In this document: in pieces, positions 7,946-63,833 of the stretch | How positions within the stretch are numbered: position 1 is the first letter of the stretch | Layout of the letters: each line of letters starts with the position of its first letter | Origin: Eledone cirrhosa | Taxonomy: Eukaryota | Assembly (NCBI GenBank): GCA_964016885.1 | Contig: OZ024740.1 | Coordinates: 257,424,001-257,488,000, forward strand | Direction: 5' to 3' | Length of the DNA stretch: 64,000 nt | The notes under the pieces: model-generated | What the model saw: only the letters and a program-made list of their open reading frames with translations | Told to the model about the DNA's origin: nothing | Database searches by the model: none | Made by a program: the position numbers and the translations under genes

Positions 7946-8329
7946 TCCTTTGTCAGTGTTGAACAAAAGGGCAACGATGGTTGCTAAACACTGTACGGCT
8001 TAATTTGGGATGTTTGTTTACAAACATCCGAGCATTATAATAAATTTTCGGCAAAACCATACGTACATATATATATGTGTGCATGTATGTATATATATAT
8101 ATACTTCTGTAAGTCTGTATACATATATGTATGTACTTATACATACTTATATTTAAGTAACAGCCATACTAAGATTGAGAAATGAAATTTTGTTTCATTT
8201 TTTCCATTTATCGTTCTCGGTGCGCCCGGCCGATTAACTCACTCGATATGCAAATTAGGCTGCTCAGCCGTTAATATGGATGAGGAAAATATATACTTTC
8301 AGGTGTTCAATCATCTGGCAAGAAGGTAT

Positions 8330-8372
8330 ACGGTGCTGACGATAGCTAATAAGCTTGAAACTAGTTCGTCGT
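8330..8372 (+). ncRNA. Type I hammerhead ribozyme with minimal palindromic stem III
   Basis: Stem I ACGGTG/CGTCGT; CTGACGA; stem II AGCT-aata-AGCT; GAAA; ACTAGT palindrome; predicted GUU cut after 8366. Confidence 0.8.
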
Positions 8373-8754
8373 TACTTTGTCAGCTTTGAACAAAAGGGCA
8401 ACGATGGTTGCTAAACACTGTACGGCTTAATTTGGGATGTTTGTTTACAAACATCCGAGCATTATAATAAATTTTCGGCAAAACCATACGTACATATATA
8501 TATGTGTGCATGTATGTATATATATATACTTCTGTAAGTCTGTATACATATATGTATGTACTTATACATACTTATATTTAAGTAGCAGCCGTACTAAGAT
8601 TGAGAAATGAAATTTTGTTTCATTTTTTCCATTTATCGTTCTCGGTGCGCCCGGCCGATTAACTCACTCGATATGCAAATTAGGCTGCTCAGCCGTTAAT
8701 ATGGATGAGGAAAATATATACTTTCAGGTGTTCAATCATCTGGAAAGAAGGTAT

Positions 8755-8797
8755 ACGGTGCTGACGATAGCTAATAAGCTTGAAACTAGTTCGTCGT
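8755..8797 (+). ncRNA. Type I hammerhead ribozyme (third unit)
   Basis: Identical to 8330-8372; predicted cut after 8791. Confidence 0.8.
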
Positions 8798-9114
8798 TAC
8801 TTTGTCAGCTTTGAACAAAAGGGCAACGATGGTTGCTAAACACTGTACGGCTTAATTTGGGATGTTTGTTTACAAACAAACCGAGCATTATAATAAATGT
8901 TCGGTAAATCCATACGTACATATATATATATATATGTGTGCATGTATGTATATATATATATATATATTCTACTGTACGTCTGTATACATATATGTATGTA
9001 CGTATTCATACTTATATCTAAGTAACAGCCGTACATAAGAGTGAGAAATGAAATTTCGTTTCATTTTTTCCATTTATATATATATGTATAAACATCTATA
9101 TATATAAATATATA

Positions 9115-9382
9115 ATGAAGGAGTTGTGGTAAGGAACCAGATGGACCATAACGCACCAGAGTACTCAATACTTAGGGTAGTAGAGTTGGTAATAGGAGAA
9201 ATAATTACCCCGACGGCAGAGCTCGAGCCGTTTCAACGGCTATTTCTGAGTATTCTTAGTGTAAAGTGATAATTTTTTTAGTCTAAAAAAATTTTTTAGA
9301 CTAAAAAAGCTCTTACTTTAGTCCAGAAATAGCCGTCGAAACGGCTTGAGCCCTGTCGTCGGGGTCATACTTCATCCTATAT
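9115..9382. mobile_element. Fold-back element in (TA)n carrying inverted 3' halves of a hammerhead
   Basis: Inverted arms 9207-9248/9324-9365; the AGAGTACTCAATAC end motif has close matches near 18220, 42031 and 49753. Confidence 0.6.
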
Positions 9383-9439
9383 AAATATATATATATATAC
9401 ATATTATATTATTATTATATACATATTATATTATTATTT

Positions 9440-59434: not shown

Positions 59435-59740
59435 ATGTATATATATATATATATATATATATATATATGTGTATATATATATATATATATATATATATAT
59501 ATATATATATAAATATATATACACACAGATATATATATATATATAATATACATATATATGTATACATACATATTTATATATATATATATATATATATATA
59601 TATATACACACACACACATACACACACATATATATATTTCCAAGAGATGGCAACATGAATGGACCTGTTATTTTTCTCTAAAAACATTTTTTCCAATTCC
59701 ACCCCACCCGTCCCTTCAATCTTTCTAATTTCTCAATCTT

Positions 59741-59776
59741 TCTTCTGAATAAGGACTAGTGTCCGAAACGTTAGGA
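59741..59776 (+). ncRNA. Degenerate minimal hammerhead
   Basis: TCTT-CTGAATA-a-GGAC-tagt-GTCC-GAAACGTT-AGGA; core G8 is T. Confidence 0.5.
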
Positions 59777-61181
59777 CCCTCTTCCTGCTATTTCAAGCGT
59801 TAACCTAATATATTTCTTCCATATACTGTATAGGTTGTTTCTCTTTACCTATTACATACACATATATATATATATACACATATACAAACACCCGTATATA
59901 TATATATATATATATATGAATAGAGGAGCGTTGTGTGAGCATGTGTATTGTTCATTTTCTTGGGCTATACTATCTTCTGAATCTAAAATCGTCGCTTTTC
60001 ATCCCTACTTCACACATCATCATTACAAGTGGCTCCTATCTCGTTAAGAGATCAGGAGGAGTACTTAATTTCACACTTGGGCGTTTTACAATGACCACAG
60101 GTTAGCCACTGTCAGTGTATCTATCTATTTTCAGTGTGCAGTTGCGTTATTGTTGTGTTTAAGTTTGGTTAAGTGTTGTGTTGTATTTTTGTAATTACTG
60201 CATTCTGTTTTTACATGAGATTGTAATCGTAGATTAACCAATGTTTAAAAACGTTTTATGTGTGCGCGCACGCACACACACACACACACACACACACACA
60301 CACACACACACACACACACACACACACACACACACACACACAAATTGAACTCTTTCTGGTTTTGGGTCCGGATCTCTGTGCGCTGGTCTGAAATCCTGCC
60401 AACGTCAACTGTAACCTTTCATTCTTTCACGGTTGATAAATTAGGTACCACTAACGTACTGGGATCGATTCTTCCTCTATATCTCTAACTCATTTCATGC
60501 TCTCTGTTCAGACCGGGAGAGATGGGTTCCACCGCATGTGGCTGAGGCGCTCTCATGATTTCAACAGGAGTTACGGGTAAAGAAACATTCATACCTGAAA
60601 AAACGTTGCGTATATAAAATGCTAAATAAGAACATTTTGAATGTCATAATAATTTAACAGTAAAAATTGTTACAGAATTAAAATCCATGATTGTGTGTGT
60701 ATTTAAGATTGTAATCTCGTGTTGAAAAAGGAATACAGTAATTGCAAATCTGACAACAAAACGCAACACAATTCCATCACCACTGACCGTGGGTAACCTG
60801 TGGCTATTATGAAAAACCCAGAAGTGAAAACAAGTGTGCTTCTTGATCAGTTAGTGAGATAGTGAAAAGCTGTATTGGCAGAGCGGGAAGAAGGGCCGCG
60901 GGAAAAATAAACCATAAAAGATTAATAGCAACAACAATTAAACATGCACACTTGTTTCTCGTAGAATCAGTGATTACAAATACAAACCTCCATATCACCG
61001 AGATAGACAAAAATAATATATACAGCAATCGTATTGGACACAGAGAACAGGTATAACTCGGTCAAATCTACGAATAGAAACAGAAAGAAAATATATCGGA
61101 AGACATGAAGGAAAAATTGGGAAAAGCAGATCGTCAGAACGGACAAAGGAAACAAGATTTCCATTATTTTTACATTGCTGA

Positions 61182-61378
61182 AGGCGGTGGATTGATAGCA
61201 TTTGTAGAACGTCGGGTAATATGCTTTGCGGCATGGAGTTACAACTCTGTAGTTTCTGAGATCAAATCCTGCCGAGGTTAACTTTGCCTTTCATCCTTAC
61301 CGGGTCGATAAAATAAAGTACCAGTAACGCACCGATGTCGATTAAATCGACTTTTCTGTTACCCAAAATTGTTGGACT
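61182..61378 (+). mobile_element. tRNA-SINE copy related to the dominant family, longer 3' part
   Basis: Head, B-box-like GAGATCAAATCC and core. Confidence 0.75.
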
Positions 61379-62883
61379 TTTATTTTAAATAAATATTTTC
61401 CTTTTTTCTTTTCTATTCTCTGCGGTATTTATTTACAGTCCTTTTCTTTCTGCGTTTAAATCCCACAAAGTTTGACTTTCATTTCAACGTTCGGAGGACG
61501 CTAAAAAAAAATACAAGTGAAGTACTGAAGTCGATATAATCAACTTCTCGCTTCATCTACAAATGATTGGCCTTGTGACAAAATTAGAAACCATCTGTTA
61601 ATGTTCTCTTTTTATGCCTGTATGGTTTGGGCTAGGTCATTTGGTTTGTAGGGACCCAAACGTACTTCGAATTCAAACTTATTATTCCTTAGTAAATTAT
61701 GTCTCTATACTGATACAAAAGCAGCGCGGGGACACCCAAATCTGAGTTCCAATCTCGTCACGGTCAACGTTGTTTTTTATCCTTTCCAAGTCGATATAAT
61801 AGCAGTGTGGTCGATAATTGATCCATATATATCACTGCTTTCTCTCACCCTCTCTATGTCTTTCTCTCTCTTGAACTATCTATCTACCTGTCTCACTGCT
61901 TTCTCTCTTTCTACAACAAACAAGCAAGAAGAAGAAGAAATCGGTTATGTTCTAACCAAGAGAGGAAAGGGGCTCCACCAGGTTTAAGTGCACAATATTG
62001 TTATGCGTATGTCACTAGTTCAGGTAAAATTCGCATTTCAAACATCGTACGGCCTTGGTTTACAGAGTTCAGCTTTTCAGATAAAACTGATTTTTTTTAC
62101 TCTTTTCACACAAAACTAATTTCTACAGTCGTGACAGGTATTTCCCATGTAGGTATTTTTCTTGCCAACGACTAACAATGACATTTTGTAATAGCATTCT
62201 CTTTCGTTAATTCTTCATTCTCTTCACAGCTGTCTCTTATCTCAGCTTGCTTTCTAAATTTGATGGCTTCCTTCAAGACAGAAAACCGCCATTTTGTATG
62301 TTTTATTCATATTTAATGTCCTTATACAGTTTTTTTCTATACACATTTCAAAACATTCTAGAGTGGGTATTTTATAATAATTTTCTAGTTACAGATTTCA
62401 ACCTGACTATCAGAAATGAATATACACTCTGTGTTGGGGTTCAAGGGTTATAGTCTAAGTTCAATAAATAGTTTGACTAATTATTGTGCGTCCAGTTAGA
62501 TATATTTGAACTATGACATGTTAACTGATTAATGACAATTTTCTTATGTTTACCTTTAATTCTATTTTAAATATACATTTAAAGAGTCTAAAATATTTCT
62601 TAAACTTTTCTACCGTTTGTCTACGTTGTGCTCTCGAAGTAATTAAATTGTTAATTCTTTGTAAGTCTTCCTATTTCTCTCTCTCTCTCTCTCTCTCTCT
62701 CTCTCTCTCTCTCTCTCTCTCTCTCTCTCTCTCTCTCTCTCTTATATATATATATGTGCGCGCACGCGGGCGCACGCGTGTAGTTGTGTGTGTAAAAGGT
62801 AGACGGAAGAAATGTAGTTCTAATATCAATAATAATATTTGATTAGAATATGTGAGTAGAATAATCCCGCCATTCTTACAGAA

Positions 62884-62928
62884 CGGCAGACACTAATGTT
62901 TCTGGTTGATCACCCTTCATCAGTACCG
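62884..62928 (-). ncRNA. Type I hammerhead (family Z) with compensatory stem I change
   Basis: Minus: CGGTA-CTGATGA-AGGGTGATCAACCA-GAAACATTAGTGTC-TGCCG. Confidence 0.82.
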
Positions 62929-63833
62929 TATAATGGTTACCTGCCAACTGTCAGAGTTAATGAAGATATATGATATTTTCTCGGAATATAGAGTGACTGA
63001 TCGGCTTGATTTGCATATTAGCAGACTGCTTGATCAGTCAGATCTGCATGTTAGCAGACCCACTATTTAGACAATTTTCACATCAGCAGATAGGCCAGTC
63101 AGTTTCATGTATATGAGCGATTAGTAGTCGGGTTTGCCATAATCCAATAACTAACAAATAGTTTTATCGCTCTATGTCGCTGAATACAAGAAATGTAAAT
63201 CTGAGATTTTCGAATATTAATATTAATATTCGATTCGTTTGCAATTATGCAAAGAAGCTCTTTAGGCCATGTGAGTGTTTGCCATTCTGTTTATATGGCA
63301 ACACAAGAACAAGAATGATAGGATCATTCTACTCACATGGCTTAAAGAGGCATACTTGTAAATGAAACGAATATTATTTTTAACTTACGTTTCTTGTATT
63401 CAGCCATGCAGAGCGATAAAACTATTTGTTATATATATATATATATATATATATATATATATATATATATATATATATATATATACTTGTATGTATGTGC
63501 GTGTGTATTGTTATATTTGTGGAGGGTCATATTGTTATAATATTGACAGGAATATATAATAAAGCACACTTACTCTTTGGTATGGATTGGTTTTCGCTTC
63601 CGTATATTTTATATCCCCATAGTTAATTTAGCTGGCAATCAATGTTTACCATTGATTGACCACCAGTTAAAATATAGATATAAATATATATATATATATA
63701 TATATAGACTCTCACAGTACTTTATTTACACACATGTGACATCATCAGTGATACACTTATGCTTCCACCCGTTGTATTGTAATGTCTACTTAGAATAAGT
63801 AAACATTACAATACAAGAACAGGTAGCATAGTA

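Follow-up and report, generated by a model that had tools for sequence, protein, structure and literature searches.

A candidate host snRNA-class promoter ahead of the hammerhead ribozymes in a lineage of retrozyme-like repeats of Eledone cirrhosa

The DNA considered here (the window) is a stretch of 64,000 nucleotides (nt) of Eledone cirrhosa, positions 257,424,001-257,488,000 of contig OZ024740.1 (assembly GCA_964016885.1), within an animal genome of 3.0 Gb. It contains copies of several short repeat families, here called 425, 327 and Z, in which a hammerhead ribozyme is preceded by a motif that includes the octamer-like string ATGCAAAT. An earlier note on this DNA had proposed that the motif and ribozyme form a module with an internal promoter like those of small nuclear RNA (snRNA) genes, in which the string is a POU/Oct distal element. 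The results presented below support a promoter of the snRNA class, matched by host genes of the U6 class and enriched before hammerheads, although the type and the position of the element differ from those proposed. All offsets (+16, +41 and so on) are counted from the A of ATGCAAAT.

Hammerheads and motif copies in the window

Hammerhead-like cores (CUGANGA...GAAA) were found at 8336, 8761, 40495 and 42706 on the plus strand and at 48184 and 62923 on the minus strand. A filter that requires stems I, II and III together with a UH cleavage site passed those at 8336, 8761, 42706, 48184 and 62923 and rejected 40495. The same filter passed 51 hammerheads in 800 kb of a blind genomic sample, as compared with one in shuffled sequence. 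An Rfam scan of the window gave no family at gathering score, and the hammerhead family was absent among the best 150 of 387 weak matches ranked by E value, which represent repeat noise; the ribozyme assignment thus relies on the stem filter of this analysis. No open reading frame (ORF) of 250 or more amino acids overlies the repeat copies of the window.

Motif copies were scored with two matrices. The first was trained on five host genes of RNA polymerase III (Pol III): the two best U6 genes, a U6 array, the best U6atac gene and the single RNase MRP gene. The second represents the proximal sequence element (PSE) of host snRNA genes transcribed by RNA polymerase II (Pol II). With up to three mismatches allowed, the motif pattern was matched eight times in the window (0.01 expected), and the bare string ATGCAAAT occurs 13 times (5.8 expected). 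Across the genome, 17,633 exact copies of a close pattern were counted, as well as 1,905 copies of a G-variant followed by a TATA box; the reversed control of each pattern gave 0.

A tandem array of the 425-bp family, of about 2.8 units, occupies 7863-9077 on the plus strand (period 425 at 7877-9077 by TRF; periods in this family range from 425 to 511 bp). It is truncated at its 5′ end inside the promoter, and its 3′ end, ...TTCCATTTAT joined to (TA)n, is that of most terminal copies. A T6 run and a short hairpin block (CGGTGCGCCCGGCCG, 8218-8232) lie ahead of the motif at 8198-8232 and recur at 8623-8657. The motif itself (8246-8269) is an exact match, with TCAGCC at +16, and scores 22.6 bits on the Pol III-gene matrix and -1.0 bits on the Pol II PSE matrix. 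It is followed by a TATA box at 8290-8296, 42 nt past the octamer A, by a start predicted from host spacing at about 8320 (C|A), and by a type I hammerhead at 8325-8375 with a palindromic stem III (ACTAGT), U-U at the base of stem II and a predicted cleavage site after GUU at 8366. The second unit (8671-8800) repeats this arrangement, with an exact motif at 8671-8694, TATA at 8715-8721 and the hammerhead at 8750-8800.

The 327-bp family is represented at 42581-42658 (plus strand) by a hairpin block (42581-42595), a motif with one mismatch (42606-42628) and a TATA box (42650-42658), followed at 42695-42749 by a hammerhead with a palindromic stem III (ATGCAT), an AUA site and a fold z of -2.65. 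The motif here had been described as degenerate; it scores 15.4 bits on the Pol III-gene matrix, and other copies of the family have a perfect octamer. An older relative lies on the minus strand at 31742-31864. Its motif (31841-31864) is again exact, scoring 21.8 bits on the Pol III-gene matrix and 6.2 bits on the Pol II PSE matrix, and is followed by a TATA-like sequence (31812-31820), but the core behind it (31742-31766) is broken (TTGATAA).

Three copies of family Z were recognized. In the first, the promoter region (40299-40436, plus strand) consists of three units with a 33-bp period by TRF, scoring 13.1, 9.0 and 14.3 bits on the Pol III-gene matrix. The trio that had been reported here is present as copies with one to three mismatches at 40347, 40380 and 40413, but the unit given as 40382 reads ATGCAGAT. 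In the last unit the octamer element is accompanied by an ATCAGT element of Pol II type (16.0 bits on the Pol II PSE matrix). The hammerhead that follows (40480-40539, GUC site) has a degenerate stem II and is the one that fails the filter. In the second copy, the hammerhead (48138-48197, minus strand) is interrupted in its 5′ part by an inversion junction near 48245, and the promoter trio of the same insertion lies inverted at 48265-48426 on the plus strand. This trio is degenerate, with 6-8.5 bits on the Pol III-gene matrix and one copy with one to three mismatches at 48346; promoter and ribozyme being on opposite strands, it does not stand 5′ of its hammerhead on one strand, as had been claimed. 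The third copy (62882-63050, minus strand) has promoter units at 63042-63050 and 62995-63018 and a hammerhead at 62882-62930. The unit at 62995-63018, with one to three mismatches, bears out the minus-strand motif placed near 63009, and the copy scores 9.5 bits on the Pol III-gene matrix and 14.7 bits on the Pol II PSE matrix. In all three copies (40329-40436, 48296-48404 and 62995-63090) the family Z element is threefold with a 33-bp period and carries the palindromes GACTGGCCAGTC and GGCTGATCAGCC; the spacing to the start that is modelled below is found only in the last of the three units.

The motif had been placed some 55-95 nt 5′ of the hammerhead. Between motif end and core there are 67 nt in the 425 family and 77 nt in the 327 family, and 59, 92 and 125 nt in the Z trio. 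An upstream CCGG block had also been considered common to 8226 and 40299; a short hairpin is indeed present, but its sequence differs between families. Near 36875, where a degenerate motif had been suspected, the score is 0.2 bits, and the site was rejected. The hammerhead at this site (36875-36960, plus strand), with GAAT for GAAA, belongs to the pseudo-long terminal repeat (pLTR) of an autonomous Penelope family, and elsewhere it occurs intact 355-410 nt after five long ORFs that encode a reverse transcriptase (RT) and a GIY-YIG domain. Two further sites in the window bear hammerheads of other kinds. Two overlapping cores of another family, without the motif, lie on opposite strands at 49800-49890 (49847, plus; 49840, minus), and a hammerhead with a long stem II and a palindromic stem III (ATACGTAT), likewise without the promoter motif, is found at 43060-43140 on the minus strand.

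Host snRNA-class promoters and the layout of the repeats

The position of the motif relative to hammerheads was determined in a blind sample of 120 stretches of 10 kb (1.2 Mb), in which 88 structured hammerheads, forming 23 clusters, were identified. It is apparent that the motif is enriched before hammerheads, as the earlier note had predicted: a match of at least 12 bits was present at -105 to -75 of 16 of the 88, as compared with 24 of 48,000 random positions (0.05%), with none of the 88 on the downstream side and with one of 88 in antisense. Of the 27 matches of at least 16 bits in the sample, 24 were inside hammerhead repeats, the other three being within the range of shuffles (1-8). At 30 loci of the G-variant pattern, an intact CUGANGA...GAAA core was found 60-130 nt downstream in 15, and a decayed core could be seen by eye in most of the others. 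The motif is thus shared by several families, but most hammerhead families, those behind Penelope ORFs included, are without it; the 16 motif-bearing hammerheads fall in only five of the 23 clusters, and the family of a sixth cluster carries the motif in other copies. The density of hammerheads in the sample extrapolates to about 2 × 10^5 in the genome, in at least 23 clusters.

A counterpart of the motif was found in the host. The sequence TATGCAAAT(T/G)AG is a proximal element at -76 to -78 of the host U6 genes (the two best and the array), the best U6atac gene and the single RNase MRP gene, followed in these Pol III genes by a TATA box after 46-48 nt. In leave-one-out tests of the Pol III-gene matrix the element was recovered at -76 to -78 in all five. 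These training genes were picked after their upstream regions had been looked at, and the pair of selenocysteine tRNA (tRNA-Sec) genes was held out as a test; in both, the best site in 400 nt was at -79 (24.2 and 21.0 bits). The element was not found at three weak tRNA matches or at RNase P. The upstream regions of U1 and U2 (n=8) gave at most 5.0 bits with the same matrix, and those of distinct U4 and U5 genes (n=13) remained below 0 at -90 to -62.

The Pol II snRNA genes of the host have a different proximal element, (A)TCAGT at -56 to -58 (9 of 10 by leave-one-out), and the best match to it in the U4 and U5 genes is at -55 to -58 in 11 of 13. A TATA box (TATATA) lies near -30 in 9 of 10, so that TCAG and TATA are 26-27 nt apart. 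These genes also share AATTAAAT near -90. A distal element, TTACCTCCCTTG, was observed at about -255 to -290 in seven of eight U1 and U2 genes, all three U6 genes and RNase P; it was absent from all seven U4 and U5 genes in that comparison, and U4, U5, U6atac, MRP and tRNA-Sec are likewise without it. Since the U6-class genes carry their element at -76 to -79, the octamer-like string corresponds to the proximal element of host type 3 Pol III promoters and not to a distal element. The proposed likeness to host snRNA promoters therefore stands in that the motif is a host upstream promoter element, but it is that of the U6 class and proximal, rather than an element of U1 or U2 or a distal sequence element (DSE). 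The two snRNA promoter types of the host are thereby defined, including a candidate U6 promoter element for the expression of guide RNAs or hairpins, of which no description was found in the literature searched.

Some further observations concern the host genes themselves. Some copies of the U6 array on C19 (loci L052 and L057) have their proximal element at -270 instead of -78, displaced by an insertion. RNase P RNA is encoded by a single gene (locus L177, C24:12936134), which has no U6-type element but a TCAGT element of the Pol II type (15.5 bits) as well as the distal one; on these grounds it may perhaps be transcribed by Pol II, unlike the RNase MRP gene of the same genome. A dyad in the host promoter, noticed by eye, failed its test and was rejected.

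Eight motif-bearing clusters that are unlinked by BLAST of ribozyme and body were compared column by column without gaps. Agreement was 0.95 for the octamer, 0.82 for TCAGC at +16 and 0.69 for AAA-TATA, as compared with about 0.52 for the spacers; the octamer columns were, however, selected for, as were TCAG and TATA in two of the eight rows. Pairwise identity in the spacers between these elements is 0.32-0.36. The TATA box lies at +41 to +44 in eight of nine family representatives, while the hammerhead core moves between +87 and +100; it also lies there in 30 of 30 pattern loci, the pattern admitting that range only. A pyrimidine|A step occurs at +72 to +74 in eight of nine representatives. 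Host distances, 57 nt from TCAG and 30 nt from TATA, place the predicted start at +72 to +74, at the foot of stem I. The promoter had been called internal: it is carried inside the repeat unit, but it lies upstream of the predicted start.

TCAG and TATA stand 26-27 nt apart in the repeats, as they do in the host snRNA genes of Pol II. The 425, 327, L174 and L274 families score 19-24 bits on the Pol III-gene matrix and family Z 9-14 bits; on the Pol II PSE matrix the site at +16 scores 8.5-16.0 bits in family Z (14.7-16.0 in its strong copies). The strengths of the two elements trade off, the 425 and 327 families having a strong Pol III-gene element and a weak TCAG, and family Z a weaker element and a strong TCAG. 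A more far-reaching idea, and one held to be less likely than not, is that these repeats carry a hybrid promoter, with a Pol III-gene element 16 nt ahead of a Pol II snRNA element and Pol II spacing to TATA. This combination, present in no host gene examined, might have been kept while at least eight clusters diverged and copies rose to tens of thousands, and regenerated at each retrotransposition by way of multimers or circles. If so, these would be self-transcribing mobile ribozymes and would provide a natural experiment on the choice of polymerase by SNAPc.

Mobility, polymerase and competing explanations

The ends of the insertions are informative with respect to mobility. There were 28 matches to an anchor of the 425 family without a following promoter, of which three were unrelated and two were internal units with a mutated motif. 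Among the 23 remaining terminal copies, 19 have the end ...TTAT joined to (TA)n, some 38 nt short of the expected next octamer; three more stop in (TA)n a few bases sooner, and the last has its end elsewhere. Insertions of the 327 family end inside a T tract or just past it, the tract lying 35-40 nt ahead of their motif. The 5′ ends of repeat insertions are variable and often inverted. Fixed 3′ ends and inversions fit the features described for Penelope insertions (PMC8557442), and the same ends fit internal RT priming on AT-rich targets (PMC11167929). A fixed end just before the promoter requires that the template span the boundary between units, as a multimer or a circle, and such templates have been proposed for non-LTR retrozymes (PMC7229834). 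The repeats have a type I hammerhead in each unit, short non-coding tandem units of low G+C content and a highly self-paired monomer; they resemble non-LTR retrozymes, and Penelope elements are their probable mobilizers.

Taken together, these data are best explained if the motif is a captured host snRNA-class promoter that heads a lineage of hammerhead retrozymes, a reading to which we assign a probability of about 0.7 for the two candidate polymerases together. Tens of thousands of repeats would then probably bring their own promoter, with the predicted start at the ribozyme. The start would lie at the foot of stem I, some 72-74 nt beyond the octamer, and the polymerase would read through one unit and the promoter of the next into the following hammerhead. 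Self-cleavage at successive hammerheads would free a monomer with the promoter sequence inside it, which might be circularized. A Penelope RT/endonuclease would prime in the monomer RNA about 38 nt before the promoter motif, and insertions longer than one unit would thereby regain a promoter before the ribozyme. Cleavage had previously been supposed to trim the transcript; release of unit-length monomers between ribozymes is considered more likely than mere trimming of the 5′ end. Many units contain runs of T6-T8, which must be read through if the promoter is to be copied.

Several observations weigh against a captured promoter. In the host, 14 other U6 matches and five of six U6atac matches have no element at -77, and in two of four U6-array copies the proximal element is displaced from -78 to -270; all of these are read as pseudogenes, a judgement made after looking. 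In the repeats, the distance from octamer to TATA (42-43 nt) is 4-5 nt short of the 46-48 nt of host Pol III genes, and the site at +16 is weak in the commonest families (-1.0 bits in 425 and -4.1 bits in 327 on the Pol II PSE matrix), so that neither host promoter type is matched as a whole. The distal element TTACCTCCCTTG was found in none of 35 repeats, and no octamer element was seen at the host Pol II genes examined. In two families the pairing of stem I extends 4-5 nt upstream of the predicted start (+72). The motif-bearing families may share a single ancestor. A hairpin at the motif region is found in the repeats (Fisher p about 1e-5, the rows not being independent) and not in host genes (p 0.5-0.9), which implies that this region is shaped at the RNA level too. 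Finally, no autonomous Penelope partner sharing sequence with the repeats was found among 46 GIY-YIG loci (30 + 16) taken from the 150 listed of 10,597 candidates. Matches of the motif families inside these loci were read as separate insertions (L295 by eye), and hammerheads behind the long ORFs of host Penelope-like elements (PLEs) gave 3.1 bits or less in all ten cores checked.

Granted a promoter, Pol II is marginally favoured over Pol III, on account of the TCAG-TATA spacing, the strong TCAG in family Z, the insertion ends past the T run, the T7 in every array unit and the precedent of newt satellite 2 (see below). Transcription of the same promoter by Pol III, as in U6-type (type 3) genes, is the leading alternative and falls within the probability given above, although we regard it as the lesser part. 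Each unit would then have a leaky oligo-T terminator, and rare read-through RNAs would be the templates. Among host genes, the strongest element of the repeats occurs only at those of Pol III. In 15 of 19 copies, runs of four or more T are found ahead of the motif, between -66 and -30 (element ends set by eye), and in full units of the 425 family T runs are confined to this region, with the exception of a single T4 in the window copy. T4 runs in the body number 8 against 13.6 expected, a weak test, and hammerhead repeats of schistosomes are described as Pol III products (PMC6765202). Set against this are the octamer-TATA distance, already mentioned, and the insertions of the 425 family, which end 8-10 nt past the T run even in subfamilies in which the run is broken. 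In addition, arrays of six to seven units have a T7 in each unit, and a U-rich priming site would account for the T runs without Pol III.

A different explanation is that one ancestor took a host promoter which the families merely inherit, present transcripts arising by read-through from the flanks. Copies of 425 and L230 do share BLAST similarity, TGGCAG and stem I are common to 425 and Z, and neither host geometry is matched as a whole; read-through is also proposed in a review of retrozymes (PMC7761336). The retention of motif and spacing while the spacers diverged argues otherwise, as does the fact that the young, high-copy families have the best-scoring motif, and we consider a relic unlikely.

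Slightly less probable still is a signal at the RNA level, in which a hairpin in the circular RNA would be bound by RT or a host protein and the likeness to a promoter would be due to chance. That the hairpin is found in repeats and not in host genes is consistent with this proposal, as is the folding of whole monomers, which as circles gave z values of -8.6 and -6.5 against shuffles (two of two monomers). An identical element at -77 in untranscribed host DNA is not, nor is a TATA box at a fixed distance, which has no rationale in RNA. Moreover, the register of the hairpin differs by family. A common RNA hairpin over the motif was looked for across families and rejected: the consensus contained no base pairs and the GGCT/AGCC stem showed no two-sided change, nine of the 15 rows having come from a pattern that fixes CASC. 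We accordingly take the motif to be constrained at the DNA level and to be carried within a self-paired RNA.

The string ATGCAAAT is the vertebrate octamer, and a POU protein could still bind it, but a POU/Oct distal enhancer of the vertebrate snRNA type is very improbable here: the host distal element is TTACCTCCCTTG at about -255 to -290, and the string lies proximally, exceeds 8 bp and has a single orientation. The position of the vertebrate DSE, about 220 nt upstream of the start in the account of PMC4494074, is not that of the host element, at -76 to -79.

Related systems and other features of the window

Because snRNA promoters lie upstream, they are normally lost on retrotransposition, and none was found in SINEU, according to the same account (PMC4494074). 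A tandem or circular template would allow an upstream promoter to travel with the repeat. No description of a promoter-ribozyme module of this kind was found in the literature searched; the repeats may already be listed in Repbase or Dfam, or in supplementary files to PMC7229834 or to the hammerhead surveys, to which the search did not extend.

The closest precedent is newt satellite 2. Its promoter, reportedly the subject of a study by Coats, Zhang and Epstein in 1994, consists of an octamer and a PSE. Like the repeats described here, it is a tandem hammerhead repeat; its unit, about 330 bp long, carries an snRNA promoter used by Pol II (PMC2220036; PMC7229834). The present repeats differ in that the host is an invertebrate and that they are led by the proximal element of Pol III genes rather than by a distal octamer; this element lies 16 nt from a Pol II-type TCAG, followed by TATA, and it is found in at least eight diverged clusters and in dispersed copies. 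To judge from the present lineage, newt satellite 2 would not seem to stand alone.

The Pol III promoter of the Schistosoma Sm-alpha repeats is of the tRNA type. These repeats are alike in having tandem units with a promoter and a hammerhead, in which an upstream copy drives the next, but their promoter is described as SINE-like, whereas the one proposed here matches an upstream promoter of the snRNA class (PMC6765202). Metazoan non-LTR retrozymes, as portrayed in PMC7229834, share the short non-coding tandems, type I hammerheads, self-paired monomers and presence of Penelope in the genome, and the U-U at the base of stem II also occurs in the axolotl HHR_Amex2. At 327-510 bp, the units described here are longer than most of these. 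A 2020 review states that retrozymes do not seem to harbour promoters (PMC7761336); the present repeats, in contrast, appear to carry one. Penelope pLTRs resemble the repeats in having a short palindromic stem III and fixed 3′ ends, in occurring as partial tandems accompanied by inverted, 5′-truncated copies, and in targeting microsatellites, but units here have no ORF and the hammerheads behind host PLE ORFs have no motif. Among host promoters, those of type 3 Pol III genes (U6, MRP and tRNA-Sec) share the -77-type element and TATA, and those of Pol II snRNA genes share the TCAG element and its spacing to TATA; the repeats combine both types, as no host gene examined does, and have no distal element. 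A promoter of the snRNA class that can be matched in the host makes the question of how animal retrozymes are transcribed directly testable.

Other features of the window are described briefly. An open frame of 335 codons at 57628-58632 (minus strand) resembles a fragment of a Helitron PIF1 helicase, and one of 260 codons at 20884-21663 (minus strand) resembles the end of the reverse transcriptase of a long interspersed element (LINE). The region 25900-30500 is richer in G+C and contains TGT/TGG/TGC repeats; its minus strand reads as Thr/Pro-rich, mucin-like coding sequence, and a block is duplicated near 26774 and 30004. An inverted repeat of 370 nt, 97% complementary and with a spacer of 119 nt, lies at 37101-37959. 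Finally, a tRNA-type short interspersed element (SINE), which looks similar to the octopus OK/OR SINEs, occurs eight times (12600, 13359, 17695, 33800, 35199, 35376, 39661 and 61244), once as a 177-bp tandem at 35201-35711.

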